From contig JAYTHE010000034.1 in assembly GCA_043732705.1 (NCBI GenBank), forward strand, positions 1 to 61,072: a stretch of DNA of 61,072 nucleotides. The letters are read 5' to 3'. The notes beneath the pieces are model-generated. The model did not search any database. It had not been told where the DNA came from and saw only the letters and a program-made list of their open reading frames with translations. This DNA is from Candidatus Omnitrophota bacterium. Its GTDB lineage: Bacteria; Omnitrophota; Omnitrophia; Omnitrophales; Aquincolibacteriaceae. Made by a program: the position numbers and the translations under genes. This document shows positions 6,862-51,800 of this stretch, one piece after another (the stretch's first letter is position 1; the number at the start of each line of letters is the position of its first letter).

Positions 6862-6975
6862 GCTTCCTCAATACGTTCCCTAAATAGGCATTTATCACTA
6901 ATAATGCTATAAATTACTATTCAAAGATAGTATTGGGATGCATTTGACCTGTTATATTTTAAGCAGGAAAAGTGT

Positions 6976-18819: not shown

Positions 18820-21800
18820 ATGCTATTTCAACATTGCGTCTTTAAAAAGTGGGTTTCGGCGTTTGTCGCGCTTGTGATGTTTTTTAATTTCCAGGTTCCG
18901 TCTGCCTGGAGCGGCCCTGCTTTGCCGGTTTTGAATTTGCCCGAACATTTGGGCATGCTTAAAAAAGTCTCGCGCGGTCTTTCTTCCGGAAGATCCTCAA
19001 AAACGGTGATGCTGATTGAAGACGCGCATACCAGTATGGAAGCGCAAATCCGTATCCGTGATTTGGTCGGATTCTTAAATCAAAAAGAAAAAATCAAAAC
19101 CATTTTATTTGAAGGCGCGGCGCATCCGCTCAAACCGTCGCTTTATCACTTCTACCATGATCCCAAAAAACAAAATACTTTTTTGCAGAATTTATTGCAG
19201 CAGAGTGAACTCACTGGCGGCGAGTTGGCGCTCTTTGATTCCATTACAGGCAAACCGAACGCGCTGCGTGGAATCGGCATGGAAAACGCGGATGATTTTA
19301 TCCGCAATTTGCAAGCCGCGAAAAAGCTGTTTCGCAATCAAGGCGCGGTTCAGGCCGCGTTGGAAAAATTAGAGCAGGTGCGTGATAGAAAATGGCGCGG
19401 GCATGTATCCAAAGAATTAGAGGATCTGATTCGTGGGCATGAGTCATTCCGTCGCGGACAAACGGATTGGTTTGCTTATCTGGATTTTTTAAATGCTGCT
19501 GCCAAATCGACGTTGCATCTTGACCTGTCCAATCCGCGCTATCAGTTTGAATATCCGATGCTTGTCCGCGCGGCGCTTCTGAAAAACTCCGAAAAAGAAA
19601 TGAAGCCGGAAATAATCGAGCAGGACCAGGCGCGGTTAGCGGCTTGGCTTCGATCCCACGGTTTTAAAGATTGGGCGGGTCAAATCGAAACCAGCAAAAT
19701 TGAAACGGGTGAAATTCGTTCCGAACTCGAACAGCTTTATTCCGATGCCGCAAAGAAGGGACTTAATTTTGAAAGCTATCCGGCTTGGTCGCGCTGGATG
19801 GGTTTGAAAGGATTGGAACAGGAGCTCGACGCAGCGCTTTTTGAGAAGGAAATGAAAAAGCTGTTTAAGCAGCTCGTGAACCAATCTCTTCAAAATTCGG
19901 ATGAGCGTGAATTTGTGAAAGCATCGCAGGACTTGTGGAAGACGCATGACTTGCTCGAATTAAAATTATCCCGTTCCGCATGGCAGAAATTAAAAACCTC
20001 CGGGGTTATCCTGAACCAGGGGACTGACCCCGGTGGGTCTGTCCCCAATGCTTCCTCTGCGTCATTGCAAGGAGCGCAGCGACGAAGCAATCTGACACGA
20101 AGTGTCATCCCCGACTCGATCGGGGATCCAGCTCTGGATTCCCGCCTGCGCGGGAATGACAAAAAGCATCAGATCGCCGCGCCTTCTTCGATGGTTCGCG
20201 ATGACGAGCGAGGTGGGTCTGGCCCCAATGCTTTCTCTCAAAAGCTGGTTACCGAGCTTGCCGGGAATGATGCGTCGCTTGCGGCGGCCATTCAAGCTGC
20301 TTGGGAGTTTTATGACGCGGCGGAAAAGCGTGAAGCCGGATTTATTGCCGCAGCATTAAAACAACTTCAAACCGAAAACAAAATGGCCGTGATTGTCGGT
20401 GGTTTTCACAGCGATGCTTTGCGGGATGCGCTTGCCAAAAATAACGTCACAGTATTTGAAATTACGCCTCGCATCACGCGGCTTGATTTTAAAGAAGGCG
20501 AGGCGAAGTATCAGCGCGCCTTGCTCGAAGATTCCGCCTTGCAGCATATATTGCGAACGGATCTGGATTTAATACCTGTCAATGCAGCTTTCCGTTTGAG
20601 TGCAATAAACAAAGCCATGCCTGGAACTCCCGACAACAACCAGCTTTTGACTCAACTTTCTGGTGTTAGGTTTGCGGAACTCAAGACTCAAGACGCACGA
20701 CTCGCGACCAGTAAGCGTTCCGAATCCCGCGTGTCGTATGCCAAGCCAAAAAATTTACAGGAAGGACTTGGGCGTTACTATGGCATGAAGCTCGAAATGT
20801 GGAATGCGTTAAATACCGATGATGCGGATTTATTCCGTGCAGTACTCGTTGACTTTCGTTTGCTTGTAAAAGACACGAATGACCTTGCCCGGAAATTAGC
20901 GGATGAGAAGGCCGCGCAAATGGCAAGACAGGTTTATGCGATGCTTCTGCAAGGGGAGAAACCCTACCCTCAATTTTTGATTGATTTTCAAGATCCGCGG
21001 CTCATGTTGGTTGAGATCAGAGTATTACAAGATGCGGGAGATAGGGATTTTTTTAAATTGCGATCGACAATTATTGAGGAGATGGCCGGTGAGTTTTTTC
21101 CGACGGATGATGAAAAACCGAAACGGGAAGAATTAATTGATTTGCTGAGTTCTAAAATCGGCACCAATCATATTGATGAACGTTTTCCCGAAAAAGCTTT
21201 TGAAGGGGATATGCACGAATGGAAAAAATTCGCACAATCGGCGGTTGTGAATTTAAGTTCGAGAGCGACGGCGCATGGCAGCTATTCACCTCGCACGAAA
21301 AAAATTTATGTCAATCCTCATCCTATTTCAATCAAAGATTTTAAGCCTGTTGCTGCGGAGGAACGTGAAATTGTTTTGCGTTCAACGATTAAGCATGAAG
21401 CGACTCACTTAATTTCGGATCGTGACTTGGGTGAGAAACGGGTGCTCAAGGTGCCGGAGCGCTGGGAAACTTTGACATGGGCGCTGGATGTGATTGAACG
21501 TGTGAATATTTTAACCGGCAAACGTGCGCTTGATGAAATGGGTGCGAAAGAGCGTGAGGCTGCTCTGGAAAAACTGCAAAGCTACAACGAAGAGTTTGGT
21601 GAGCCGGCATTACGTGCTCTTTTTGAAGTTGGCCGCGAAATGGGCAAAAACAAAGAATATGGATTTTTGATTCTTCCGCACATTGATTCCGAAGCCGGTT
21701 ATTTTTTTATTGAGCCGTTGATTGAAAAAGCAAAAACAGTTTACGGTAAGCTGGGATTTCCGCTGCTTAATTTGGATGATCAATACACGCGTGAGCGCGC

Positions 21801-24800
21801 GGCAGCCATCATTTTAGGCGGAATTTTAACCACGCATGAAGACACGAAAAAAAATCCTGCTAAAGCTTTGAAGGATTTTTTTGACAGTTTGTATGAGATG
21901 TATGGGGCGCATGAAAATCCGGCGGTGATGGCAAGAGTCGCTGAGAATATCCGGTATGTAATGAATGCGCTCGTTGAAAAGCTCGCGGTGCGTGGTACGG
22001 ATATTGTTTCAGCGGGTTTTTGGAAATATGATCGTGGTGACCGCGTGGCGGGAAGACGGCCCACTTTTTATTATAACGAATCTGATTTTTTACCGCGTGC
22101 GTATGACATGCCCGCGGAGCTGCGTGAAAAACCCGTCGAAGCCATGGAAGCAGCTTTGCTGGCGGCGCGTGAACGCGGGCTTGGTAATGCTCATTTAGCT
22201 TTTGCTTATGAAAATATTGTGCATGGTGAGTTTGATGAAGCAGCACGCACGCTTCCTGAACACCGCCTTTTATGGCAAATGTTGTGGACTCCTCAAATTT
22301 ATGCATCGGAGCTCATGGAAACCGGCCACAAATCAGTTTTGCAGGTGGCTCAAGACCGTTTGATTAATGATTTGCGCGGCGGCGCGCGCTGGCTGACGCG
22401 CGTTTTTCGCGAGCGCTATAACCCCAGCGTTAATCTGATGGCTGCCCGCGCCCGGTTGGCGTCTTTACCGCTGCATTTACAGTATTTAGATTCCATGCTC
22501 TATGTTTTTTCAAATGAACTTCCTGCGGATTCCAAGCAGTCCGCTGATCCACGGCTTACTAATTCTGATGTGATTGCGGCGCTAAAAGCCACGCATGGTG
22601 ATTATGCTAAAAATCCAGGCTGGCTGCGCGCGATGATCGGCTGGAGACCTGAAGACGCGAATACACCCGCGAAATCGCAAGCCATGCTGGCTGAAGTTGC
22701 GGAATCGATTTGGCCGGTTTACAAAAAACTTTATGACAAAGCGGTCGAACAAATGCGTAAAGAAATTTTAGAACGTGCGGCGAACCGCGAATTGGAAGAT
22801 CAAGAAGTTCTGCAAATGTTAGGGGATATGACTCCGGCTGAACAGCAATTGCTAGAACAAATCCTGCAGCAAATGATGCAACAGTCCGAGCAGCAATTTG
22901 CTTCGGGCAATCAATCTCAAAACCAATCATCCATGCAGTCACCGCAGCAGCAATCCGGTCAACAAAGTGGCAGTCAACAACCCGGAGGACAACAGAGTGG
23001 TGAATCGCAAGCAGGTGGACAGCCTAGTTCAGGACAAGCGGGCGGCGGCGCGCAAAAGAGTAGTCAAGGAAATCCTGGGAGTGGTGGGCAGTCCGCAGGT
23101 GCGAGTCAGGGTAAGCAAGGTGCTTCTCAACCGGGCAGTGGATCGCAAACGGGCGGACAGCCGAGCAATCAAGGTAGTCCAAGCGGTGCGAAAGCGAGCG
23201 GCGGAAATCCAGGGGCTATGCAATCAGGCAATACGCCGGGATCAAACGCCGTTTCCAAGTTACAGGCAGCATTGCAAAATTTACAAAACTTAATGGGGAC
23301 TTTAGGCAGCCAAGTTCAAAATCTTGCTGCTCAGGCCGCACAAGTGAAACAGCAATTACCGCAAGTTGCGGGCGCGGCTGGGCAAGTCGGCGATGCTTCT
23401 CAGCAAGCAAAGAAAGCCGGAGCAGAGACAGCACAAAGCGGACAAAAAACTGAGCCGGGTTCGCAGGCTTCAGATTCCGGTACGCCGAACGCACAATCGG
23501 CAGCTGAAGCGGCCGCCGAAAAATTAAATCAAATGGCTCAAAGCATTCAGAACGAAGCCGCGAGCGCACTGAATCAAGCGAAGGATTTGGAAAATCAATC
23601 GTCTGCGGCACAAAATGCCGGCAATCAAATTCACAATCAAATGCCATGGAAAAATCCCCAGGTTGAGGCCGGGCAAATTGCCGCTCAAGCGCAGGCAATG
23701 AAAAAGAGCGCTGAGCAGCTGATGAAGCTCGCGAACCAAATGGCTGAAAAGGCAGCGCAAATATCAAACGAGGCCGGAGCGCAAAATCCGGAAGCAGCAA
23801 AATTAAAAACGGACGCGGAAACTATGACGCAAATGGCGCAGCAAATGAAGGCGAATGCCGACGATATCGTTCATGGTACGCGTCAAACCGAAGAAAGCAT
23901 TGCAGAGGCTGAGAAATCTGTAGCAGATGCGGCAAACGCGATTCAAAAAGCGCAAGCGTTGATCGAGAAAATGGATGCTGCCAAACAACAAGCCAAAACG
24001 GATTCCGGGAACGAAGTCAAACAGCCCAAGGGCAGTTCTCAAAAGACAAGTGAAAGCCAGGGAGGAAAAGGTACAGGGAAAAGCGAGGCCGGCGGCAGCA
24101 GTAGTGCGGGCCGCGGCATTGAGGCCTCCGGACAGCTTTCTGATTTACCGAAGCCGCCGACTTCTTTTGGTATGCGGGAAATGATGAAACTGGGTGATAA
24201 CACAAACGGGAACGCCAATACCGGCAAGCCTATAGCAGGTATTGATTTTCAGCCGGATGATTATGCGGGGCTGGCAGCGGCACTTAAAAAAGTAAAAAAA
24301 CTCAATGCGGCAGAAAAAAAAGAATATGACAGTTGGTTTTCCGACAAGGTGCATGACCCGGACGGTGAGAAAGTTACGGTGCGTGACATTATCGATGAAA
24401 TTGTATTTTTTCTGAACAGTACGCTTAAAGAATCGCGCGGAATTGATAAGGTGGACGCGCCGCACGGAGCTGTGCTCGCGAATGTGGTTAAAGCGGTTAA
24501 CGGTGCCGCGGGCGGCTGGGCCAATGTGGACTTCACTAAAATCCCCGAACTTTATTTAGCTTTGCTTGTTGATGCTAGCGGTTCGATGGGAACCGAATTT
24601 TATGGAAAAACAAAAACCCAAATCGCGCAAATGGTGGCGTTTATTCTGATGGAAGCGATTTATGAACACAATCTTGAACGCCGCAAGCTTGCATTGCCCG
24701 TAATTAAAATGGAGATTGGGATTTTTCAAAGCGCGGTTGATTTATTGGTGAGTCATGAACAGTTTGAAAATATGGATGACCGGGAAAAAGAATATTTTAT

Positions 24801-27800
24801 TTATCATTCCATCAAGAAGTTTGAAGAAGGCGGCAGTACGGAATACTCGTACGCGGTTAAACGTTATTTTGAACATGTCGCCAGCCTTGGCTTTGAAAGG
24901 AAAGTTCAAAACGATGTTTTTGTGGTCACCGATGAAGCTGTTGGAGAAACTCAAAAAAAGGAAGTTCAAGGTGCGGTTACTTTCGCAAAAGATGAAAATG
25001 TCGGCTTCCATATTGTTCCACTCGGTGATGACGATGAAATCGAAGCATCCAAGCAACTTCATGGTTCCGAACTTGTAATTGATCCGCGCACGCTTGAGAA
25101 ACGTGTTGAATTGCTGCCTTATGTCATGATCGCGCGCATGATGGGCCGGCTTGCCAAAGAGTATCGCATTGCATTGCCGCCGCGCTTTGCGCGTTATGTG
25201 GCGGAGACTGACGCCGCCACTCGCTCTGAAGCGCGTGTATCTGTGGATCTCAAAAAATTGCGCGATATTCCGGGATATCAATTTTTCAAAGACTACACAG
25301 ACGCCGATGGACGTGAGTTTTTAGTTTGGCTGCGCGCGGGTGAAACTATGGCTTGGCAAAAAGGCGTGGGCGGCAGCGAAGTGCCGCGTAACCGGCCCGC
25401 GATGACTCCCGAAAACGAAATTATTCTGTACGGTTTATTAAGCAAACTCTACACGCCAGATGTGATTTATACGTCGATTAACGCTGACCGGCGTTATTTT
25501 ATCCGTGAAGCGCAGAACGGAAAAACCGAACTTTTTTTCCGTGAGAAAGAAGAGGACGGGTGGAAAAGTGCTGCGAAATGGGGGATCCAAAATCGTCCGG
25601 TTGTGGATGGAGAACGGTTTCGCGGCGCGAACGGTGTGACCTGGAAAGCGGCGAATTCGGGGAAGGTCGAAGTCAGTTTGGAAAACGGCACATCTTTTAA
25701 AGTTGATTTGCCCGAAGGGGTCGCGGTGGACAAAGTTTATTTTGAACAAGCTGGCGACGAGGATACGGTTTATTTATTTCAATCCGGGCGCGCGGCGCGA
25801 GTCCAAGTTTTTAAAAAAACGGGGACAGTCTGGAAGCAAGCGGCAGACATGCAGATGGAGACTTGGACAAAGGCCGATGAACCCTTAAAAAAAGTTTTGA
25901 ATGCGACGGGTCTTCCCGGACTTGGCAAAGGCGTGCTTTTGCGTGAAATGGCGCGCATGATGAATTTGGAATATTACAAACTTGCCGCGGACGAAAAAGT
26001 GCATCCGGAGGAATTGGCGGCAAATCGCGCTCTTCGCGATGGTGTCTCCGCTGACGATCCTTCCTCATGGACGCAAGCCCGTCACCTGGGAGCTTTATTT
26101 GTCGTGGATGAAGCGCATAAACTTTCCAAAGAAACCATGAATTCAATGAAATCGCCGATTGCCTCAGGTTTGCATGAATGGGTTTACATTACTCAGGATG
26201 GGCAGTATAAAAAAATGACCGTACCCAACAGCGCGATGGCGCGCATTGTTTTCACTTCTAATACATTAGTTCAGGGAATTACCGGCTCCGCCCTGACGGA
26301 TTTGGATCCCGCCATGCGTAGCCGCATTATCCTGCAGCAATTTAATTGGCAAAGTCCGGGCGCTGAAAAGAGGCGTCTCATGTTGCATGCTGAAAAATTT
26401 GTGCGGGATAATCCCGGCCTCCAGCTGCCGTCAGACTTGAATGAAACGGTCAACCGGTTAATGAAAGCTGCCGCGGGTTTGCGTATTGCTTATTTGGGGG
26501 GAGATAAAGATGACATTGATGCCGCCATGCAAACGAGCGATGGAATTAATTATCCGTATTGGGAAAGAAAAATTGAGGAATTATCCCGCAAATTTAAAAC
26601 GCCGGGTATTTTACGCGCGCCTTCCGCCCGTGTTTTGCAAATGATGATGGAACATTTTATCCGCTTTCCGCTGGATGCAAAATATAGAAAATGGTCGGTG
26701 GTCCACCGTATTTTTAATTTTCGCGCCGAAGACGATCGTAAGAAAAGCTATGAAACCGTGGAAGCCGCTTTCCAGAAATTTTTTGAAAATGATCCCGCTG
26801 CCGGTGCGCGCAAACCGCATTTTGATCTTAAACATTCTTTTCAGGTTGTGCGCCGCGGCCAAGACGCCGAAAGCCTTCCTCTTTACAGTTTGCAGGTCAC
26901 GGCTACGGGCCCTGACGGCAAGCCCGATCCGTTTTTTGATACGTTTGAAGTTCCAATTCACCGCGATAGCGAGATGGTTCAGCAATTTGAGCAGGGCGAA
27001 ACACCCGAATTGCCCGCCGCATTTCAATTCCTTTTACGTTATCCGCAAAATCACGAATTGCTTTATCAAATGCTGCAGGCTTATGCCAAAGACCGTGATG
27101 TTATTTTGGTGGGGCCCGCTTCCACGGGTAAAACGGTGATCGGTACCACGGTCCAGGAATTGGTGGGCGGCCGTGGAGTGACTGTTGAAGCAATGTATGA
27201 AGGCGTAACGCCGGAAACATTATTTTATTCGCCCGGAATCGGACTTGACGGAAGAAGATGGGAAAGCGGATTTTCTGCCGGCTCAGTGATCAAAGCCATG
27301 CTGGAAGGTAAGCCGATTGGCTTTGATGAAACAACGCAGGCGGAAGCGCATGTCATCGGCAAATTGAATGAAGTTACCGAGCAGCGCGAATATGAGCACC
27401 CCGGCACGCATGAAAAAATTCATGCGACTCGCGGTTTTTGGTCATTGCATTACATCAATCCTCCTGATGGCTATGACACCGGCACAGCGTCAGCGGAATG
27501 GTATGAACGGCATGACATTTTATGGGTGGATGCTTTACCTATTCAGGAATCCATGGAACTTTCGGCTTCTGCGGGAGATCTTGGCGATAAACAAATCAAT
27601 CCCAAATTAATTGGCTTGGCTGCTTTGCAACGCGGAGAATCCAAGGGATTGGTAGCGCTTATGGAATGGTCGCGTCAAGCGGCGCGGGGAACAGCGACAG
27701 GCAAAGCCAAAGACTTTACCAAGAAAATCAAAAACGAAATTGAAATTCGGCGCATGATTGAAGCGATAAAAGCCATTGCGCAGAGATTCGAAACAGAATT

Positions 27801-30800
27801 TGCCCTGCAAAATCGCAATTGGGTTTTGGAAGCCGTTAAGTGGGGGATTTTCGGGAAAAATCGTGACCCCGAAACCGTAACGGCCACCGAAATTCGGCTG
27901 GTGATGAATGCCTGGATGCGCGATGAACACGCCGATTGGAAAAATCAGAAAATAGGCATGGGAGATAAAACGCGGCATGATTTTACGATCGAAGTGCTGC
28001 GTAAACCGCAGGAAGTTTTGCTGGATTTAATTAATCAGAATTATCAATTTCAATTTCCCGAGTGGCATGAAGTATTAGTCGACGGTCTCAAGCAGGCAGG
28101 CCTTTGGAAAGACGAATGGAATCAAGACGGTATTACGGAGCTCTTGAATGGCGAAGATATTGTGCTCGAGCTTCTTCCGCTTTTACCAAACGGCAAGCCT
28201 AAATTAGACGGCACGGAATTCAATGAACCTGTGTTGCAGGACGTGCTCGAATATATTGAACGTAACGTTGATGGCGCGGCACTGCAGGAAAAAATAAAGT
28301 GGCTTCAGACAAAAATATCAGAACTTTACGCGACTCATAAAGACCCGGCTAAAGCGGTTAATATCTGGAACAAACTCGATTTTGAGACTCGGCTTAAGCG
28401 GCTTGCGGTTCTTTCCGAAATTTACCGCATTTTGAATTTAACAGTGACATTGCGTGGGTATGGAGTAAAAGGGCGCACCCACAATGAAGCCAATACCAAA
28501 GTGCTGCGTTCCTATCTCGATAATATTGAACGTGCTATCGAAGCCCGCGATTGGCCGGTGGCGGCGCTGAAGGACGCAGAAAATCCTGAGTTTGATGCGG
28601 TCAAAAAACTCGAGGGCTGGCTCGCGGAATATAAATTCAGGAAGTATACAATTCTTCCGACTGGTAAGAGTGCGATTGACGGTTTTGGAAGCGAAGAAGC
28701 GCAGGATTTGGGCGCGCGGGCTTTTGTTTTGGGGAGTCAGTATCCCGATTATACAAAGATCATCGTTCCGAAATTGCAACTTGCAAGGCAACAAAAACCA
28801 CCGCAAGCAAAACGTTCCGAAGTCCGTAGGGGTCTGTCCCAAGCAGTGCGCGGGACTGATCCCAATGCTCCCGTTACAGCAGTCTTTGGTCTTTCTAGAA
28901 ACCATAAGGGTCAGTCCCCATTCGAGGACAGACCCTCCCGACGTTCCGAAGCGCGATTCGATGATGCGATCCTTGAGCTCGCTACCGCCCAACAGGGGTT
29001 GAGCTCAGCACGAGCGCTTCAAGATTCGATTGGCGGAAGTGAAAGTATCGTTGCCGCCGCGCAAAGACAAGTTGAAGCTTTAGAAGTTGAAGTAGAGAGA
29101 CTCAAACCAAATGGCTTTGATGTGGCCGCCGCGCTTGTAGTTGCGAACCAAGCTGCATCTGCGACTCAACAAGTTGCGACGCCTGCTCCCGCACCTGTTG
29201 CGGCTCCAAAAACTGTGGTGAGTAATGCAATTCTAAAACATTCAAATATTATCGATTATGCGTCGTCATTGGGTTTGGGAAAAGGCACGGAAAAGTATTG
29301 GGATCAGTTAAAGTACCCGGGATTTTTTCAAAAAAAATGGATAAGTTTCGGCTATTTGCTTCTCTGCAACCTTTATATTTATCTGGATTATGTTTTATTG
29401 TTTTGGAATACATTTACCGGTCTTCTCGAACGCGGACTCTTGAAGGATGAGCAACCGCCCGCTCTTTACATGGCGGAACGTCATATGAGAAGTCTCGTAT
29501 TGGATGTCCAAATTGCGACAAAAGATGTGGATGCGCCTGAGAGTAGAGAGGCTGTGCGTGTTGAACTTGCTTTAGAACAAAAGATAAAAGCATTTCGCGA
29601 TAAGTGGAAATTTAAAAATAAATTTCTTAATTATTTTACCACGGGCATTTTGGAGCTCTACCTTCCGATTTGGAGAAATGCCACCGCTGTTGCGTGTCTT
29701 AGCGAAGTGAAAGAATGGCTTAAATACCCGCAGCGAAAAGCTAATCAAATGTCGCGCGATGCTTTTAATAAATTCATGGCGGCTGAAATAGGCAAAGAGT
29801 CAGTGCAAGGGTTATTCGGCAGATTGGTTGAGCTCACCCCAGATTATTATGACACTCAGACTAGCTCGGGATGGTTGGCGGTTCTGTTATGGCACAGAGC
29901 TTACGCGTCTAAAAGAGATGATCCTAACACTCAAACGACACCGTATATTCCCAAGCCTGAAATAACACTTATTGATTTAATGCGTGAAAACCGGCGTGAC
30001 ACGCAAAAAGCACTGTCCGATGAAGAACGAAGAACGCTGAGTGTAACGGCAGGAATTTTATCGCAAAGATTTTGGCTGGAAATGGCTTATGAATTCCGTG
30101 AAGTCTCGCGAAATGGATTTTACTTCGCGGAACACATGCTCGATGCCGGATCCGTCACTGCGCAAACAATAAAAAAATCACAACAGGATTTAGCGCTGAT
30201 GAAACAGGGGCTGGACGCGGATGTCGTCACTGACGAAGAGCTCGCAGAGATTTCAAATAAAACGCGAGCTATTTTATTTGATGACTTCGGGCAATATCCA
30301 AACTTTCAGTACTCCCATTTAATTTGGAATATGATCGAGCCGCTTCTGCAAAAAGAGGTTGATGCGGATGAGCGGCGATGGGGCTATGCTGATTTTGTGA
30401 GTGTTATTCAGCAAGCGCTGGGCCACCAACTTCAATCCCGCTGGGTCGCGCAGCCTGATGATGCCGCGTTTTTGGCGGTGATATCAAATCGGTACAGACA
30501 TTTTTTTAATATCAGAATGTCGCTATCTAAAAACCAAGCGCATTTCGATGACGAAGCACGAAAACGACTAAAAGAACCTGAGCCGATTATTTTAAGAAAC
30601 AGGCTTGCGACCATGAATCGATGGTTTGTGGAGGAAGAACCAGACAACGAGGAAGTTGAAGCGAACTCTAATGACGAATTAGCCGACATCGTCGCACGCT
30701 CTGAAGTTCGTGGAAACCACCCGCACCCCAGGGGTGCGGCCCGGGTCAGCACCCCTGGGTTGTGGGTGGGGCAAGACGCGGCACTATCTTCACGTTCCGA

Positions 30801-39800: not shown

Positions 39801-42800
39801 TAGAGGGAAAAATAATCCGATTGAAAGAGTAAACACCCCAAAATCTGCTGACACAAATATAGGATTCGAAATTGTCTTTGCGGATCCCGCCACTTATGTT
39901 TCGCCGAATGCCGCGCGTTCTGAACTTCGAAGTCGTCAGTCTTTAGTCGTCAGTCTTCAGTCGGCTCGCAGTGAAATGCGTGAACAAACAACCGTAGAAG
40001 AGGCACTGCAAAAGGCGCGTGATGAGCATTCCCAACTAGTTCAGCAACATTCCAGCATGCAAGCATTGGCTGAATCGCTCGGAGACGCAATTGACCTAGC
40101 TGTGACCGCGGGTCCGGTTGCTGTGGCAGCGGAAGCTATTCGATTGCTTGAAGATAAATTGCGCGAAATTATCGAAGCAAAGAACAAAGTTCCCGGGGCC
40201 GAACGCTGGATTACACTCCTCGCCGCGAAAGAAAAAGAACTTGCGGAATTGAAAGCCTTGTTGGGGACTGACCCCAATGCCGGTTTGGGAACGGGGTCTG
40301 TCCCCAACGCTCAACCCAAAACGGTAGTTGCCGCAGAACCTCAGCCGATCATTGAAGATAAATATGCAAAACTTAATGGAATAAATAACGCGCGGGCGAG
40401 TTATTCTCACGACTTTTCAGTAATCTCAATAACTGTGATTGACGATATCCCAACGTTAATAAGCGGGTCGCACACTATTCCCGGTAAATTTGAAAATGTC
40501 CTTGGAATGGAATGGCTTCCGACGGGGAAAACGGATAGGCCCTGGATGCTTGTCGTGATTGGTAAGGAGGAGTTTTGGACAATTCTTGTGGATGGAAAAG
40601 GTGCGCCGCAATCGCCTGTCTCACATACTCCCGTACAAACTGGGCACGTAATTAAAAACTGGGAGATTTATAAACAAAATTTAGAGCAAGGGTCTCCAAA
40701 TAAACATAGTTTTTTACTCGTTTTTGATGGAAATGCCCGGAAAGTTTTGACCTACTACAGCGTCGTCGATGGCGACGTGAGATTTGTCAATAATGGGGTG
40801 GTTGGCCCAAAACATGAGCTTTTCGCAAAAATGAAAGTTGCGCAGGAGAAGCTAGAGCCTGAACCGATTATTGAAATTAAGATGGCGGATCTTAATGCGA
40901 CACAGCAAGTGCGGACGGATTATTGGGCCACTAAAATAAGTTTGAATGTGTTAAACAATGGTAAGAGAGTGGCTCGGCATGAAATTCCTGGGGCATTTGA
41001 AAATATTCTTGGTATGGAATGGCTTCCGACGGGGAAAACGGATATGCCATGGATGCTTGTCGTGATTGGTAAGGAGGAGTTTTGGACAATTCTTGTGGAT
41101 AAGGCAGCTGTGCCGCAATCACCGGAATCCCATGCGCTCACCTCCGAGGGTGTCCAATACAAGAACTGGGAAATTCGTCAATGGAACCACGGGCCCCAAA
41201 ATTATTTTCTGATGCTAAAAGACAGTGCGGGAAAAAATTTGCCTTATGCTTTTATTGATGGCCAAGTGAACCCTTACAACAGCGAGGCAAACTTAGGTCC
41301 CCATCATTCTCTATACACAAAAATGAAGGTTGCGGATGTCGCGGCATCGGATGCAGTTCTCAGCGCTGCACCGCAAAAAAGATTAATGCCCTTAGGCGCT
41401 TTGCCGATTTATTTGCGACCCAAAGTGACAGTAGGTTCAGGTGAAGAATTAATTTTGTCCGGCAGCAAAGATGATGACGCGCTTTTACTTGTTTTTAAGC
41501 AAGTTGGAGCTGTTCCCAACTCCGAATCTATCGAGGCGCTTCAAGACAAGCGTGATTTAATTCAAGCGGGTTATGATCCGGCGCAAAATAAAGTTTATAT
41601 CGTTGTTTCCAATCAACCGCGTGTTCAAAATCAAAGTCAGGTTGCCGCGAAATCAAGTACGACAACATGGGGCACCACGATAGAATATTTAACTCAATCT
41701 GAGGCGCTCAAACGCCACGATGAATTTAAAAGTAAAAATATTCTGAAATACGTAGAGGTTCCTACAGAAGCCATGGCCGCTTCCTCCCTCGGTTCTCCGG
41801 CCTCGGGCCTCCGGTCTCGTATCGCTGCGTTAGAAACAGAAATCGCGCGTCTCAAAGATTTGATCGCCACATATGAAAAACGCGCGAAGGTTATCAATGA
41901 AATGACCGCCCTTGAAGCGCGAATCACCGGGGACAGAGCTCTGGTCGGCAGCTCTGTCCCAAATGTTCCCTCCGCTGTCGCACCTCAAAAGCAATTGAAA
42001 AAATGGGATGGTAAGGATACAGGTCTGGTCAAGAAAAAGGGCAATACAATTACGATCAAAAGCGTCGTGAATGTGAAAATTCGTCCAGATCAAATTGCCC
42101 AACTGCATGATGATAAGGTGGGTGCGCTGACGATTGTTGTGGCAGACGACGTTGTTACGACTGATTTTCCTCAAGGAGTAGATGGCTATGTCATTAGGTG
42201 GATTAAGGAGGAAGAAGTTAGAAATCATCCGGAACAATTTTCATATCTTGCTTTTGAAAGTGGCCCGATCGCGGGCGCAACCCAAAAGCAACTTATTAAA
42301 TGGGATGGTGAGACGCTGGTTAAAATTGCAACCAATTGGGATTTGACCTATGCTTCTCCCGGAGTTGGGGAGATTGTAAATAGCATGGGCAGTAGGTTTG
42401 AGTTGCCCGTGCCTCTTCAAAGTATTTTGCAGGTTAAGCCTGATCGATCGACCAATGACTTTGTTGTTTTAGTGGACGAAGCAGTGGATATTGCAAACTT
42501 ACCTGCCTCGATTCATGCCAAAAATAACTCGACCTCAATTACAGTGCGTTGGATAAAACCCAGACAGCTTGAAACCCTCGAAGATGGACGTTTGGCAGCG
42601 CCATCCATGGCGACAGGCCCACTGGCCGAATATGCTGAACGAGTCGTATTTGATACTGAAGATGTTTCTGTTGAACCCACAGGGGACAGAGCTCTGGTCG
42701 ACAGCTCTGTCCCCGATGCTGTCGTTGCCACTCAAAAACGATTAATACCGATGCCGCGGGATGGTAAGAAGCAAGTTCTGGGTTCAACTAAGACGGGCAT

Positions 42801-45800
42801 CGAACTCTTTTTTTACATGATGGCTTCCGGCGACATTATTTTTTACGACAGCGGGAATGACAATGACATCATTTATTATAAAGGAACAACGCAAAAACAA
42901 TTAAATGAAAAAGATGTTGTTCAAATTAAATTTGATAGAAGCAAAACTGAAATTTATATTATTTTAAAAAATGATGTAGTTGGTCGGTTTGGAGAGATGG
43001 TTAATCTTGCGGGGCAATCTATTGCGGTGAAATATCTTTATGAAAAAGACTGGAATCGAGACACCGAACAATATCCCAATATTTTTGAATGGGAAGATGT
43101 TCCGGTCGCTGTAAGTGCTTTGGGGACAGACCCTGTTCCCGAAATTGCGCTGGGGTCAGTCCCCAAAGCAAAGCGTCTTACGCATCTTAAAGATGTTTCA
43201 AGTATTCTCGACGATAAAATCCGCATGCTTGAAGCATTGCTTGGTGGAACCGAAGACCATGGGGGACAGAGCCTGCCTACCGGTCAGGCAGGCAATATTG
43301 CTCTGTCCCCAACGCCCTCTGTCATTCCCGCGCAGGCGGGAATCCAGTCTTCAGTCTCTGGTCTCTTGTCTCCTGACTCTAATAAGATCGAACTTTCCGA
43401 CGGTATTTTTGTTGGGTTTGGAAAATGGAAATGGGGTGTAGGCCAAATCGATCAGGACGGCCAATTTCTTACGGGCACTGAGTGGTATGGCAGATTTGAT
43501 AATATCCAAAAAATAGAGGTTCACGGTACGGGTGAAAAGCGCATTTTATTCATTACAGATGAAACAAGAATCGTCGCGGTTGAACTCATTCAAGAAACCG
43601 ACAGCGCCGGCGAATCAACCTTTCATTTTTGGCATCCCGGTCATGTCATTTTAGACCAAGAAATTAGCGCGCCCATTCAAAATTCACGCATACATGCTTT
43701 TGCTGATTGCGTATTGTGGACAGGTTGGTTTCAATCCCCTGAAGGCCCAAGATTCTTTAAGTATGAAATCAATTTGGTGGATGGAAGTGTAACAGGTCCA
43801 CCGCCGAGTCTATTGGGTCCGAATTTTCATGGCTTAAATTACTATCAAATCGGAAGCGAAGAATATATTTTTCAAAGCTTTGGAAATAATTCCGCGTTTC
43901 AACTTGATAAAGTCTTGGAAACCGAGGCAGGCATTGTCATCGATGGGGTGAACCATGTTCGCTGGGCAGATTTGGGCATCAAACCTGCTCTGGGTGATTT
44001 TAAGTCTGGGAATCCGATTCAAATCGGCGGGGAATGGTATTTGCAAATTGAATCACAAATTCCGGGAACTTCGAACGGTAAATACTTTAGTTTGAAAAAG
44101 TTAGAACATTCGTTTAAAGAAGACAGAGTTGCCTTCGTCTATCAACTTGATTTAACGACTACAATCCAGGCTTTGACGGCAAATTTTTCATCGGAAGTCA
44201 GCGTAAAATCCGTTAAAAATAAAGATGACAAAACCATCGTCCGCTTAGCGGGTTTTCCTGATGGTGAATCTGAACGTGATTATGAGTGGGTGAAGCAAGG
44301 CAACGAAATTAAATTTGTTCCTGTCCCCGGTGTTGCGCCCAATACGCCACCACCTACCATAAAAAGCGCTGTCAGGCTGGACGAAAAATATTGGGTGGGT
44401 TTAACGGATCATGGGATTCAAATCGCTTACAACCCCAAACCAGGAGAGGTGGGTATTCAAAATAATAAGCCGTTGGCGGATATTCTCAAATTTGAATATA
44501 AAATTATTTCCGGAAAGCCCTATTTATTTATCACAACTAAGACGCGTTTATTATTGGTTCCGTTTGATTCCAATTTAGGGTTTAAAGCGTTTGGTGCGCC
44601 TGTATGGGAAAAGACATTCGATCCCGCTCAGCCGATTGCCGACTCCAAAGTTGCAGTTCTTGATCCGATTGGTGAAAACGGCAATTTGGCTGGGCGTTGG
44701 ATAATTTACGCCGCAGAAGCCGCGGGGCACAAAGCGTTAACTCAAAACATCGATATTTATTTTGAGCCGACCGGAGCTGTAGATCATGTGGTTCCTCAAG
44801 ATCCGGTTCGATTTACGCATTCGGATGCCCAAATCGGATTTTACGAAATCGACGGCGAATTTTATAAATTTATGGGCAATCCTTATTTATTTGAGATTCG
44901 TCAAATTGTTCGATCAACAACTGATGGTTCGATCCATGAAGAACAAGTTGGTGGCCGGAGCTGGAAAGACATGGGCTATGGAGACAGTAGCGGCGGAATT
45001 TTTGTCGCGGCGAATGTCATTCGAATTGATTCGCCATTAAAAACGGATGATGAAAATTGGAATACGGATCTTTTTCTTTCGGTTGCGTATTACTATGATG
45101 GGGCTGGTGCCGCGGAAACCAAATTCGCTCTGTATCCAATCAAAACGGAAAAACGATTAAAAGCCACAGGACACGGCAATACATTTATTGATCGAAAAAC
45201 CCACAAAGTTTTGACGGCCCCCAGTTTGGTGCCAATTAATGCTTCACCACTTCCCGGTTATTACAAAATCGGCGGATCTACTGGCAATAAAATTCAAGCC
45301 AGCATCGAAATAAGTGGGGTTGCGGAAAATTATATTCTTGAATGGCAATTACAGGCGGACGGCAAAACTTTCAAATTGGTCCAGACGCCTAGGGTGACAC
45401 AGCAATTTAAACTCAGAAGATCTAAAACTAATTTTGTGGGAAGAACTCTGGTTTGGGGTGACTCAGACGGAACGGGTATTGATTTGCGTGTTAGTGGTGA
45501 CGCAGTTTCTCTTGAACATCATTCTCTTGCGGATAATGGAGACTCTTCGACCGATGGAGTTCATGAGTTTACCGTCGATGTTCATGGTCTTGAAGCTTCA
45601 AACTTGGTTAGTGTGAAGTACGATTCAGCGACCGATAAGATTTATTTTGTTGTTAACGGGTTATCTCAAATGTCCAAAAAGCCAACTGTTGAGGAACCAT
45701 GGAAAAAAGTTATTTGGATTGATCTGGACGAAGCTCAAAGCGCAGAAGGCTACGCGAAATACAAAGATATTTTGGATTACGAACCTGCCTCTCTGCCCTC

Positions 45801-48800
45801 AAAGGTTTTCCCTGTCTCCGGTCTCTTGTCTCCTGTCCCTGCCTCGCCGGCAGGCAGGTCTAGTCATGAGAATGCGCCTGCGCTTCTCAAACGTCTGAGT
45901 TTCCTCGACCGTTTATTAGCTCTTCTCGAACAGCATTGGGAGTTATCCATTGCTGGCAGCGTTGGATTGGGCGCAGAAGCAACGGAAACAGTTTCCTCGG
46001 GCCTCGGTATCAATGAATTAGAAAAGCAGCTTGCAGAAGTTCAAGCTGAGCTAAAAGCAAATTGGGAAATGAAGCAAGGTCTAAGCACAGCCGGTAATCC
46101 ACGAATGACTATTCGTCATATACCATCGAATCAAAGTGTGGCGTGGTGGTTTGGCACTTTGGGAGAGGTTCCCGAGTCTGAGGATGATGAAGATACAGAT
46201 CTGAAAGTGCGTGATTCAACCCTTCTCACTCAATACCAAGCCTTAAAGAAAAAAGAAGCGGAGTTAACCCAGGCTATCGCTGTTGCGGAAAAATCAGCAC
46301 CCTCGGTTCTCGGTCCTTCGGCCTCGGGCCTAATTGGATTAGTTGCCAAGGAAATCCGTTTAATCAAAAAATGGCTCAGACTGGATACGCTCTTTGAAAC
46401 TTTGAAAGCAAGACTCGCCGCATTCATGGAGCGAGTTTCCTCGGGCCTCCGGCCTCCGGCCACGGTTCCTGTTTCCGCACAGCCGCCGCTTTGGGACGCA
46501 GGGGAATTTTATGCAAGATTGCCTTGGGATATTGATTCAAACTCAAACGGACTGGTTAAGAATATTAATTTTCAAGATGCCGGCTGGAGCTCGATGAAAT
46601 ATAGCCCTGATTACTGGACGCTCAGACTTAAATATAAAAAGGCAAGTGATGACCCTTCCGTAGTGCATGAATTTACAGTTCAAGGTATCCGCGAAGGAAC
46701 AAAATCCAGGCTTATGGTTTGGGGTAAAAAAATCTCTGAAGACATGAGCGTGCTTTTAGATGTGAGTTATGATGCCATTGAGCAAAGGCTATTTTTAACG
46801 TTTGACAGCTCAGTTGAACAGTCCGTAAGAGATGCGCTGAAGCATGCTGATCTTGAAAACAATGAGTTAGGAATAAAATTTAAAATCCAATTCTCAACCC
46901 GTGAAAAAGTCATCGCCGCGAAAGCCCAAAAACTTGAACGCTGGGCTCCCTTATACGGAGATATCAATACAGACAAAGGGGGGCGCAGACTAACTGCGGG
47001 CCCGTTCCAAGAGAAAATGTCATTTAAAGTGGGTGTTCAGAATTGGCAGACAGAAATTCCAAGCAGTCCTATTGTTCAAATTCGCGGGAGCATAGATCTC
47101 AAAAAAATTGTGATTGTTGTCGAAGATGGAACTATTACGAGCGATGTCGCGACATTCATTCGAGAGATTGAGCTTGATGGTGAGAAATATGACATCGTTT
47201 ACATCCAAGATAAAGATGTTGTTCGCGTCGAAGACCAATCCATTTTTAAATTTGAGCCCGCGGTATTGGAGAAATACACGATTGTGAATATTGCGAAAGA
47301 CACGCCCACAGAATATTTTTTGGGTGGGCAAGAGAGCATTTTATTTTTCCCGGAGGGCAAGAAGGTAGTTGTTGCTGAGACAAAAAAAGGTGGAATTGTA
47401 GAAGCATTTGGCTGGCCGGGTTTACACGATAACTTCATCAACTACTTTTTGGATCATGATGATTTGGGAAGAAAGAAGTTGGTCATTATTGTAAAGGAAA
47501 AGACCGACTTCTCGAAATATCCAATACATATGAAATTGCTAAATTTGGATGTTGAATACTGGGAGGGGTCGGTTGCATTAAAACCCGAAAATATCTCAAA
47601 GATAAAAAATGCTCTTGGCAACAAAGCAAATTTAGTTCTTCAGGCAATGGAGACTGTCACCGCGCCCGCAACCGTTGTTCAAAAACAAAAGGCAATTCAC
47701 CCCACGTCAAAAGCTGAAGTTGAAATGAGACTCAGTTCGGATCACAAAGTGCAGATAGTGGGTGCCGATTGGAATATGCCGCATAGAGCTGATACTTATC
47801 AGCTTCCTGACGACGTGATTCACGCTAATATTTTTTATTGGTTAGACCAGCTCTATTTGCTGACATTTTCAAAAGATAGAACAGGGCCTGGTACGGCGAT
47901 TAGACTTTATATGCCCACACAAGGTCAGTTAGGACGGACAACTGATGAGCCCTATAGATCACCGCTTCCAGTAAAAGGTTATCAATTGGTGCAACCAACG
48001 GGTGCTTTATCTGATTATTATTTAAACCTGGAGATGGAGTCGGGAGCGATTGCCACGCAGAGTGGACCGGTTTCTGCCCTGCAATTAAATTTTCCGCTAG
48101 CAACTTTGGATTATTACGCAAGTATCGCCCAAGGCGGTGAAAAGATTATCGACGTAACAGCTCTTACCGATGTTTTTCAACCCGCCGCCGCGCCATCATT
48201 AGAACATTGGGATGGCAATGAAATGAAGTTGGATGGGACCAACTTATTATTTAAAAAAGAAAATGGGTTGGTTTTATATAAGGCAGAAGGTAAATGGTGG
48301 ATTCTTCAAAATAATGAGCCACAGAGAGTTCCGGCAGATGCGGTGATTCAAATTACCACAAGGCGTGCTGGAGACTTGAGAGAGCCGCCCGAGCCCGATG
48401 AAAAGACAATGGTTGTTTTTGTTCTAAGAGATGATTATGGGCATGCGATTAATTTTAATACGTTGGGTGGATATCAAACAACGAGTTATACAGAAACTGG
48501 GGCAATTAAGGCCATTGCTGCCGGCGTTGATTTTTTCAAATTTGCTTCGAAAAAATCTGCAACAAAAACGCGGATTAAGCCGCAGACGACAGGTAGTTAC
48601 AATTTGGGTAAAAACCATGAGGGGGCGAGAGTTGAATTCTCCAGATTGGACGAAATTAGCATGGCTTTTTTTGCGCATTACCCTGGTGGTGGCGCATATC
48701 AACACAATGTTTATCATAAAGGTGGTGTTGACCAATTGAGCCCCAAAGATATTTTGCAAACCAAACTTGTTAATGAACATGGTTCTTTGTCTGTCTATAT

Positions 48801-51800
48801 GGCCGTGAAAAATGGTGCGGATATTTCTAACTATCCCACAAGCATACTTTTGGACAAGAGCGATGCCGGCACGAAATCGGGACCGGGATTTGCGAGAATT
48901 TATTACGTTGAAGAATCTAACTATTTAAAAGAACCTGAGAAATATCCGTCCGGATTATTCGAAACCGAAACCGTGCAGTTGAAACCGATGCCGGCGGGTG
49001 ATGTTGAAATTGGAGAAATGAATGACGGTAGTAAAGTAATCTTGGCGCAGGTAAACGGATTTTATTTTACAGTTGAATCGCAACCTGATGTGACCGGCAA
49101 ATTTGAATTTACAAGACAAGACATTTTGCAGGTAAAAATTCACGATAATAAATTTTATATTGTCGCCCAAGCAGGCATTGATTTCAGCGGTTGGTCCCTT
49201 GAAGGCGAATCGCTTCCGGCAGGGCACACTTACCACGCAGTGATTTTGACACCCGAACAGGCTGTGAGTCCGCGATACGCCGGAATTTTCGAATTCGAAC
49301 CGGTTTCCAACGAGGCCGGAGGCCGGAGTCCCGAGGCTCAAGGCGAAGCCATTGAGCATAGAGCGATTGCTCCGTCTTCTGCGGCGGTTGTGATTCACGC
49401 ACAAATGCAGCAAGTCGGAGAGCAACGCGCTGCAGTTGAAGCTCAGATCAAGGCATTGCCCCCGTCGGGGACTGACCCCCATGACGGCTCGGGTACGGGG
49501 TCTGTCCTCGATACTGCGAAATGGCGCGTTGCGCCGTGGGTTCAGTCAAATGAAATTTTAGCCGAGCATTTTATAGATGCCGCTCAGGGAATAGCTATAG
49601 AACTTGATCCGGGTAGCATGCAAAGCACGGGGCGAATTTTTATTAAGACTACTGCCATTCAACAAGACGGAACTGGGAAATGGCGTAAAACTACGCTCGC
49701 AGAGCATATTAAAAAATTCGATATAAATTTGGCCGAGGCAAATTTTATTGCAATGGGCTACGATTCGAAGAGCAGAAACTTACTAGTTATCGTAAAAGCC
49801 AAACCAGACAATGCCCAAACGTCTTTATTGGTTTATGCTCCCTTGACGCGGCTAAACATAGAATATTTAACTGAAGCCGAAGCGCTTAATCCCTCTCGCC
49901 GCGAGGAACTCGAAAAAGCGGGAATTGTGTTTGAATCTATTGCTGCGGTTACGCAATTCAAAGTAGTGTCGGATCCACGTCTCAAACAAGGCACTGTTGA
50001 TATTCAGCATGTCGGTAGCATTGAACATGGTGGTGATACTTACAATTTGATGCTTGAATCCGGTGCAGCAAGGCCTGAGGGTCAGACGCTCTTGGTTAAG
50101 ATGCAGCGTAACGCGGAGACACCTACAATAGAATTGTTCCTTTTGAAAGATGAACTTTTGGCCTATGGGTTTGATGCATCCCAAGTTCCCGCAAAGCTCG
50201 TTTTTGTTTATAAAGAAAATACAGATCTTTCCGGGCGAGGCAGCAAAATAGAAGCAGTGGGCTCAGCTAAGATCGCTGATGTTAAGCATTTAACCGAATC
50301 TCAGGCTCTTGCCCCCGCCCGCCGCAAAGAACTCGAGAAAGCGGGAATTAAGTTTAAACAAGTTTCGACCGGATTTGACGCAAAAGAATTATTTAATAGT
50401 TTGCCGTGGACTTCAGTTCCCATGCAAACGGGATTGAGTATAAAAGTTTTTGATGAATCGGATACGCGGAAAGGCCGCATGGTTTGGCATGAAAACGGAG
50501 ATTTTGATTTGTTTGCGGGGAAAATCAGGGTGCGAACTAAGCCCGGCAGCTCTGATCGAATTGAATTGATGAATGCAGACAATTCGATTGTAACGGAGTT
50601 GCCTTCAAAGTGGCTGTTAAAAGTTCGGTATGATGCTGCCGCAAAGAAGTTTACATTTGTTTTTGATAAGGCCGCTCAAGACGAGGTGTTAGCGCATATG
50701 GTGAAAGCAGGTCTTGCCGGAATAATACCTGACACCACCCTGGATTCAAAAATTGAGTTTGAGGAATCGTCTCCGTCGAATGAGCCCAAACTTGCGCTAT
50801 GGCCGACTGATGACCAGACTGCCAGCGTCAAAATTGCGGGCGTGAATATTGTTGCATCGGTTTCCGGAACAGGAACTATAGTTCTTACCGAGAGAGTGCC
50901 GGTGGGAAGTGCTCGCGGCGGAGCTCCGAATTTGATTCCGAATACGTATATTCCCCTCGATGATTTTGTTACCCTGGGCGTGGATCCGGATGGCGTGAGC
51001 GCTATGGGTGGAAGGGTGCAAACGCTTGTGATTGTTTTGAAAGATAATCCCTCATTTCAGAAGCCGAGTGATGTCGAAATACAAATTGGCAGTGAAGTGG
51101 TTTTGATTAAGTATGAGCAAGAGTCGGATGTGCTTAAGCATTATTCTGATTATGCTCATGTTTTGAAATCAACCGGCTTGGCCGCGCGCGCGGAATTTTT
51201 GGCGAAATGGAATGCGATTCATACAACCGATCCGATTAAGCCCGAAGATATCGTCCTTGATAAATTAAGTGCGGACGGAACGATTGCGATTTTTGCAAGT
51301 GTTCGACCTGTTGTAGGCATGCCAAAGGAGAAGCAAATATCTTTTTATCGATATAATATTCAAAGCGGTGAAATAGACTATTTCCACCAGCAAAGGCCTG
51401 TTTATATTCCGAATGACCAGGTAGTCGTTGATATTGCCATTTCTCCGAATAACAAGGTTTACTTTTTAAAAATGAAAGAACGAGACGGAGATATTATTAC
51501 TTTTGGTTCAGATAGGACGAAATCCTCTAGCGCGGCTTTCATTGATCCGAAGTTTGATCAAACATTTGAAAATATTTCATATCACATATTTCTTGCGGGA
51601 GGCAGTTCTCATTTCCAAACCGTTAATCTAGGTGGGCCGGTTGTTTTGCGTTCGGAAATCAGAGTCAACCACCGCTCGGCATCCAGTCATCGCGAGGAGT
51701 CCCTCAAGGACGACGTGGCGATCTCTCGCAGAAGAAGTGAGATTGCTTCGCCTAAGGCTCGCAATGACATTAAACCCTTGGGCCCCGGGGCTCCGGCCTC

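Follow-up and report, generated by a model that had tools for sequence, protein, structure and literature searches.

RSExR, a conserved motif at the module boundaries of an 11,223-residue Omnitrophota protein and a candidate recognition site for its processing

The 61,072-nt contig JAYTHE010000034.1 of a Candidatus Omnitrophota bacterium (assembly GCA_043732705.1; its whole length is referred to below as the window) contains a giant open reading frame (ORF) at 18820..52491 on the plus strand. It encodes a protein of 11,223 amino acids (aa), a precursor of 1.2 MDa with a hydrophobic signal or anchor at the N-terminus, and a search detected homologous giant proteins. Here we show that the pentapeptide RSExR, which recurs along this protein, is a real feature under selection at the peptide level, and that it is conserved at orthologous module boundaries across deep divergence. 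Judging from the sequence context, we lean towards the view that RSE-(aliphatic)-R is a short linear recognition motif lying in exposed inter-module linkers, where it most likely directs site-specific endoproteolysis.

A sequence-only reading of this DNA had listed 11 in-frame copies of RSExR and estimated that chance would account for far fewer than one. The count is exact, with codon starts at 20716, 25222, 28813, 28942, 30697, 30793, 32935, 33679, 39916, 39967 and 51649, and the estimate proved correct: a model of independent, identically distributed residues gives an expectation of 0.116, and 2,000 residue shuffles gave a mean of 0.125 and a maximum of 2. Among all 4-mer and 4-of-5 patterns in the giant protein, RSE.R ranks first for over-representation, with a Poisson P of about 1e-18 for the 11 copies, which holds after correction for roughly 6e5 patterns. 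Two pairs of sites are paralogous (aa 3992 with aa 7050, and aa 4706 with aa 7033), so that about 9 sites are independent, and P is still about 1e-14. Chance was rejected as the origin of this count. Relaxing the motif (R to K, S to T, E to D) yielded zero extra sites in the giant protein, and its free fourth position is always occupied by S, A, V, M, L or I. No RSExR was found in the other real ORFs of the window, and none in about 12,000 residues of non-giant ORFs taken from the window and two homologous loci.

The codons of the motif vary synonymously, as had been claimed, and the last Arg is additionally encoded by CGA and AGA. In 25 RSExR sites from five genomes we counted four Arg codons, five Ser codons (including AGT) and both Glu codons; the Arg of position 5 uses all six of its codons, AGA and AGG among them. 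This variation indicates that selection acts at the peptide level. S, T, A or G follows the motif directly at 30 of 43 sites, the background for these residues being 0.27 (P = 9e-9), and the flanks of the sites are rich in P, S, A and Q.

The giant protein is built in the order N-terminal domain, HExxH module (with a coiled coil and a von Willebrand factor A, vWA, domain), double AAA+ module, several modules of unknown function and a conserved C-terminal module. The same ORF thus holds several independent functional modules, which the relatives carry in other orders and contexts. All features are on the plus strand unless stated otherwise. Boundary B1 (RSESR, 20716..20730, aa 633) separates the N-terminal domain from the HExxH module, and B2 (RSEAR, 25222..25236, aa 2135) separates the vWA from the AAA modules. 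B3 (28813..28956), which follows the AAA module, is a pair consisting of RSEVR at 28813, a 38-aa palindrome-encoded spacer (28828-28941) and RSEAR at 28942. In the second pair (30697..30807), RSEVR at 30697 and a 27-aa spacer precede RSEMR at 30793, which opens a module beginning 'EQTTVEEALQK'. The third (32935..33693) comprises RSELR at 32935, which ends an 'ADPATY.SPN' domain, a long spacer (32950-33678) and RSEVR at 33679, and the fourth (39916..39981) RSELR at 39916, a 12-aa spacer encoded by a simple tract and RSEMR at 39967. The last site, RSEIR (51649..51663, aa 10944), stands at the boundary before the conserved C-terminal module (51664-52488). The resulting blocks of 632, 1497, 1192, 580, 709, 2074, 3889 and 275 aa are close to the sizes given by the sequence-only reading, and its proposal that RSExR marks module boundaries is borne out both by paralogous module ends within the protein and by the same joints in its homologs.

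Self-comparison of the giant protein revealed paralogous modules whose ends coincide with the motif. RSEMR opens the 'EQTTVEEALQK' module in both of its copies (aa 3992 and aa 7050), and RSELR closes the '...FADPATYVSPN' domain at aa 4706 and again at aa 7033. Of the 'ADPATY' domain there is also a third copy (aa 6690-6865), which runs straight into another copy instead of a new module and has no RSExR, whereas the terminal copies have the motif; the motif therefore belongs to the joint and not to the domain. In the pair 39916/39967 an end-of-module motif adjoins a start-of-module motif. Since modules seem to carry their own terminal motifs, pairs would arise where two module ends meet.

The same sites would be expected in homologous giant proteins, as the sequence-only reading had pointed out, and this is what we found. 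An exhaustive HMMER search with aa 1801-3000 gave 72 relatives, of which 35 lie below 1e-30. The majority have lengths of 2,000-7,500 aa and match from vWA through AAA in one stretch, and the metagenome-assembled genome (MAG) bins that contain them belong to Omnitrophota, Auribacterota and Planctomycetia. No match came from word-indexed searches in which aa 3300-5000, aa 2140-3331 or the HExxH region served as the query, exact-protein look-ups matched only the same sample (Logan SRR23617244, 100% identity), and a metagenome scan returned only two loci. R-[S/A]-E-(V/A/M/L/I)-R stands at equivalent boundaries in relatives that are 25-47% identical, and a subset of them shows strong enrichment of R[SA]E-phi-R: P0003 has five sites (0.06 expected), L015 ten sites of the form RAE[AV]R (0.08 expected), P0004 four (five with its continuation ORF) and P0034 four, P0046, L012 and L011 (a Ca. 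Omnitrophota MAG) two each, and P0002 and P0024 one each.

The positions of these sites correspond closely. At B1 the motif is found some 20 residues ahead of 'YY.LK..M', with which the HExxH module starts, in the window protein, P0003 (RSEMR), P0004 (RSEAR), L011 (RSELR) and L015 (RAEVR), and P0001 has KSEMR as the equivalent. At B2, where vWA and AAA join, it precedes 'GY.FF' by about 16 residues in the window protein, P0002, P0003, P0004, P0024, L011 and L015, the equivalent in P0001 being RAELR. B3 carries the paired motif in the window protein, P0004, L012 and L015, a degenerate pair in L011, and a single motif in P0003, P0034 and P0001. The motif also precedes the C-terminal module in the window protein, P0003 (RSELR) and P0034 (RSEVR), and follows the 'ADPA.Y.S.N' domain twice in the window protein and in the second giant ORF of L003 (RSEMR). 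Moreover, two motifs bracket an inserted Metallophos module in P0003, and motifs bracket the AAA module in a different context in P0046. The motif is thus present at four or five of the same boundaries although the linkers are otherwise unalignable and the flanking domains only 25-47% identical. In the genome that encodes P0004 (L003; GCA_964562525.1, CAZLTL010000001.1), the giant gene is split at 19939-19969 into two ORFs 30 nt apart, of 3,312 aa and at least 4,405 aa, the break falling about 130 aa after the B3 pair; the split could be real or a sequencing error.

Other lineages of the family carry other short motifs at these joints. P0006 has GFG[AT] ten times (0.24 expected), including B1 and a doubled copy at B2. 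D.AM occurs three to six times in P0009, P0011 and P0021, where it is found at B1, at B2 and before the C-terminal domain. In P0017, whose module order is permuted, each of three copies of GARL (0.08 expected) stands ahead of a module (AAA, HExxH and C-terminal). In numerous other relatives a hydrophobic, transmembrane (TM)-like segment is present at B2, and these have no recurrent motif. Since different lineages carry different motifs at the same joints, we conclude that the boundaries are conserved and that the short tag is lineage-specific, which resembles the co-evolution of proteases and their sites in viral polyproteins.

The spacers between the paired motifs are 38, 27, 243 and 12 aa long (114, 81, 729 and 36 nt), and their contents are those originally described. 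Spacer 1 is a long palindrome of 144 nt (z = -3.4), the outer stem of which consists of two identical motif-coding 10-mers, CGTTCCGAAG. Spacer 2 holds a 26-nt inverted repeat (30717-30769), spacer 3 two antisense small ORFs that lie within an S/T/R-rich stretch of the giant protein, and spacer 4 an AGTC-rich simple tract between the motifs at 39916 and 39967 (repeat family D20). Paired motifs with unconserved spacers recur in the relatives: P0004, L012, L015 and L011 share the B3 pair, with unrelated spacers that are 17-37 aa long. The B3 pair is therefore old, and the palindrome is a later occupant. A conserved RNA hairpin between the two motifs was rejected, the spacer of L012 having a z of 0.0, and an Rfam search of the window gave no match. 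Translational bypass of the kind known from T4 gene 60 and mitochondrial byps was rejected as well, all four spacers being multiples of 3 and stop-free in frame. The same holds for inteins: the spacers are low-complexity or palindrome-encoded and lack splicing-block residues, and no Pfam Hint/intein match was obtained.

We interpret RSExR as a recognition site because four invariant residues and a preference at +1 are maintained in otherwise free linkers, because the motif flanks modules that have moved, and because the tags are swapped in other lineages. That recognition leads to cleavage is what we infer from three further considerations: every functional unit that can be recognised is bounded by the sites, removal is the simplest explanation for the unconserved spacers of 12-243 aa between doubled sites, and the pattern mirrors that of viral polyproteins and, among bacteria, of MARTX toxins. 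In such a scheme, the precursor would be made as one chain and then cut into about eight mature products, and any short peptide between closely spaced motifs would be cut free and discarded. A possible protease is the invariant HExxH domain present in cis; the aliphatic residue of the motif would then fit the P1' position of a zincin, with the cut between E and phi. Alternatively, an Arg-specific enzyme might cut between the last R and the small residue after it.

The candidate zincin active site lies in module 2 at 21394..21468 and comprises HEATH (aa 859-863) and Glu883. An alignment of nine homologs shows no change at H859, E860 and H863 or at a Glu that follows 15-20 residues later, and an AlphaFold2 model of the module (predicted local distance difference test, pLDDT, 76) places these residues on consecutive predicted helices after a small sheet. 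The N-terminal domain has an invariant set of its own (D-x-H, E, R and GG-x-H). The best Foldseek matches of its AlphaFold2 model are erythromycin-esterase-like (3b55, EreC) and weak (E 0.2-1), which hints at best at a TraB/Tiki/erythromycin-esterase-like fold.

Several results speak against processing by an in-cis protease, or against processing altogether. Neither the HExxH module nor the N-terminal domain could be assigned to a known peptidase family: the best E-values in Foldseek were 0.2-1, and Pfam, NCBIfam and the sequences of the PDB, the last searched with module 2 and with profiles of the N-terminal and HExxH domains, gave no match. The HExxH module also occurs in relatives with the TM-like junction and no recurrent motif, so its presence does not predict the motif. 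Nor is there a conserved gene for a trans-acting protease beside the giant gene across the window, P0003 and P0004 loci: an M48 peptidase is encoded in the window and an S24-like gene lies at the P0003 locus, while there is none at the P0004 locus. The invariant Glu and Arg of the motif would be equally suited to serve as a ligand of a metal-ion-dependent adhesion site (MIDAS), and one block of 3,889 aa contains no site despite its many domains.

MARTX toxins undergo autoprocessing between their effector modules by a cysteine protease domain (CPD). Like the window protein, they are bacterial precursors of very large size and many modules, whose unstructured linkers carry short recognition sites and which bring a protease in cis, the last being only a candidate here. 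In contrast to MARTX, neither a CPD (C80) nor RTX repeats nor Leu-(A/S/G) sites were detected by Pfam in the window protein, the motif is R-[SA]-E-phi-R, and the sole candidate protease is an unclassified HExxH domain. The resemblance to viral polyproteins (nidovirus pp1ab with 3CLpro, or flaviviruses with NS3 sites cut between R and S/G/A) lies in the fact that about ten copies of one motif delimit the units, that a small residue follows the site, and that the motif varies by lineage as the boundaries stay. In contrast to these, the giant ORF is a cellular gene of a bacterial chromosome with housekeeping neighbours, and no viral-type protease fold was found. Gingipains (HRgpA/Kgp) and the adhesin precursors of Mycoplasma are bacterial surface precursors cut into several pieces at Arg/Lys or, within S/T-X-F-X-D/E, after the F; they differ in lacking homology to the giant protein, in being smaller by a factor of 10-20 and in having known proteases.

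A fuller account of the family is possible, and we put it forward tentatively: its members may be true polyproteins that are cut at lineage-specific motifs (R[SA]E-phi-R, GFG[AT], DxAM or GARL), either by the zincin-like domain in cis, which belongs to no described class, or by some other enzyme dedicated to the task. The motifs would co-evolve with the enzyme, as happens in RNA viruses. The doubled sites would then excise the spacers, thereby letting palindromes and an antisense two-gene cassette settle in frame.

Alternatively, the motif could be a docking element that is never cleaved: the linkers would display a peptide of acidic and basic character, its Glu and Arg invariant, to be bound by the protein's own vWA MIDAS site or by its AAA+ motor, in the manner of MoxR or midasin, so that modules are folded, assembled or remodelled with the chain intact. 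We consider this less likely than processing, but a serious rival, and the necessary parts are present. The window protein combines a vWA domain bearing the MIDAS-type DxSxS motif (DASGS, 24571..24585, aa 1918; a VWA_2 match at E = 0.0035, which is below Pfam's cut-off, with the motif kept in the homologs) with two AAA+ domains (AAA / AAA_5, dynein/MoxR-related; 25906..27432; AAA_5 E = 1.9e-20), in which the Walker A sequence is GPASTGKT. Thus, an AAA_5-type ATPase with a Walker A motif and a vWA domain with a MIDAS DxSxS, both MoxR/midasin-like features, occur together, and all relatives also carry the vWA (DxSxS) and the double AAA_5 module. MIDAS sites bind a carboxylate of their ligand, as integrin I-domains do with GFOGER and midasin does with Rsa4/Ytm1; an acidic residue lies within or usually after all four motif classes (RSE, GFGA-E/D, D.AM), and paired motifs could add avidity. 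However, nothing obliges a docking motif to lie precisely at the ends of modules, to flank every shuffled module, as is the case in P0003, P0046 and P0017, or to prefer a small residue at +1. Furthermore, GARL contains no acidic residue, and for the unconserved spacers within pairs, removal is the simpler explanation.

It is improbable, in our opinion, that RSExR is only a structural or evolutionary mark of the junction, that is, a linker or helix cap that travels with duplicated and shuffled modules and has no dedicated reader enzyme. The modules do carry their own terminal motifs and occur in different orders and contexts, and several sites precede predicted helices. Against this, four positions are invariant where the flanks are about 25-30% identical, synonymous change is free and the linkers cannot be aligned; such invariance calls for purifying selection that is strong and acts on these very residues. 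A shared structural requirement would also fit poorly with the entirely different motifs that other lineages have at these joints.

Very little speaks for a feature of the DNA itself, with the peptide as a by-product of the ends or target-site duplications of palindromic elements (similar to miniature inverted-repeat transposable elements, MITEs, or repetitive extragenic palindromes, REPs) or of a recombination site: CGTTCCGAA is nearly self-complementary and the 10-mers CGTTCCGAAG form the outer stem in spacer 1, but the two copies in each of the remaining pairs are unlike at 6-7 of their 15 bases, one site encodes Ser by AGT, hairpins are lacking at solitary sites and the motif is lacking at most hairpins, the B3 pair occurs in relatives without a significant hairpin (z of 0.0 in L012), and codon use across genomes is fully degenerate. 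The codon data have thus already largely refuted such an origin, which we regard as highly improbable. A MITE/REP target-site duplication at the pairs was specifically rejected, since only spacer 1 has 10 identical bases and the B3 pair is conserved around unrelated spacers.

Giant proteins of 10,000 aa and more have been described in Omnitrophota, and their post-translational cleavage has been suspected (West-Roberts et al. 2023 preprint, 10.1101/2023.11.21.568195). The preprint names C39 and S8 peptidase domains, states that the cleavage points are unknown and makes no mention of a vWA, MoxR or midasin-type architecture; the family described here has an N-terminal domain, HExxH, vWA and AAA_5. 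A literature search with the motif strings gave nothing relevant. Polyprotein processing itself is known, and in the searched literature we found no giant proteins of bacteria described as having a boundary motif that is both conserved and lineage-specific. RSE-(aliphatic)-R is the first concrete, testable candidate for where such proteins are cut: a conserved boundary motif predicts exact cut sites, suggests which residues to mutate and offers structure prediction a rational choice of module borders. The different motifs at the same joints point to a general processing or recognition system in this family that has so far not been described.

The sequence-only reading had further suggested that excisable spacers have become safe havens for selfish or structural DNA. 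This is supported only in part. Just two of about 13-16 hairpins lie between motif pairs, a cluster of them in the N-terminal domain has no flanking motif, and the 28813/28942 pair is older than the hairpin inserted into it. A family of short, G+C-rich hairpins of the form GGGGACWGACCCC ... GGGGTCTGTCCCC or GGGGACAGAGCTC...AGCTCTGTCCCC is present in frame in the giant ORF at 20019-20058, 20212-20238, 31101-31140, 33807-33846, 34983-35022, 35430-35469, 37035-37070, 38761-38818, 38887-38944, 40260-40317, 41929-41986, 42682-42739, 43119-43166 and 49464-49510. They encode linkers such as GTDP..GSVP and GDRALV.GSVP. Since the stems are perfect at the nucleotide level, DNA or RNA, and not the peptide alone, seems to be selected or mobile. 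None of the GGGGACWGACCCC / GGGGTCTGTCCCC-type hairpins, of which the giant ORF has at least 13, was found in the 27 kb of the window outside the giant gene. The cluster in the N-terminal domain is an in-frame palindromic-repeat insertion of about 78 aa (20011..20244) that is absent from the homologs and predicted to be disordered (pLDDT below 50). Linkers in general, and not just excisable spacers, are tolerant of hairpin DNA. Rickettsia palindromic elements (RPEs) offer a parallel to the hairpins, not to RSExR, in that palindromic DNA is inserted in frame, stop-free, and translated as extra loops or linkers; they differ in that the repeats described here are confined to one gene of the 61-kb window and have no sequence similarity to RPEs.

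Another repeat of the giant gene is a 28-nt palindromic sequence at 20134-20161 and 43320-43347, the two copies being in opposite orientation and 100% complementary. Its translations are LDSRLRGNDK and VIPAQAGIQ, which may resemble those of a repeat widespread in uncultured bacteria. Logan short-read contigs of the same sample break exactly at the copies of this palindrome.

The antisense cassette of spacer 3 consists of two small ORFs on the minus strand. Antisense ORF 1 (33228..33506) encodes 83 aa from an ATG at 33479, has a Shine-Dalgarno sequence, GGAGG, 7 nt upstream and is preceded by an AT-rich, promoter-like stretch (33505-33580); antisense ORF 2 (32994..33221, 75 aa) is its paralog. 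Both of these tandem paralogs are coiled-coil-like and end in LETKxG, and the substitutions between them are distributed over the three codon positions as 27/18/45. The giant frame is open through all 243 codons of the spacer, and the other plus-strand frames contain 15 and 7 stops; when the antisense proteins were resampled with synonymous codons, the giant frame stayed open in 6% of the trials. Searches of Pfam and PHROG gave no convincing family for these ORFs, and viral relatives were not found.

The giant gene lies among an ordinary set of bacterial chromosomal genes, namely those for a ShlB/FhaC transporter, an aminotransferase, AsmA, Era, the M48 peptidase, IspH/LytB, an SDR and AddB. 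The transporter, of the two-partner-secretion type, is followed by a 1,117-aa protein (together 5113-10329), the C-terminus of which has a weak match to a LapA retention module (NCBIfam, E = 2.5e-8, below the cut-off). For the giant protein itself, a Pfam scan of the whole sequence in overlapping 1,000-aa pieces gave only AAA families and the weak VWA_2 match, and an NCBIfam search gave almost no domains. A Q/G/S-rich low-complexity tract followed by coiled-coil-like sequence (22900-23500, about aa 1420-1560) lies between the HExxH part and the vWA domain, and a tract of this kind is conserved throughout the giant-protein family. Seven tandem repeats of ~147 nt (33959-34889), each encoding 49 aa ('YLGDGFALAGT...'), resemble beta-propeller blades and have a weak Pfam match to the RSE1/DDB1 propeller (E = 0.0012). 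Simple (CTCCGG/CTCGGG)n-like tracts occur at 35978-36009, 37047-37092, 41786-41831, 46300-46331, 46438-46469 and 51775-51806; they translate to ..SGLRS.. and ..PASGLRS.., and SGLR and SGL.S are among the most enriched peptide patterns after RSE.R.

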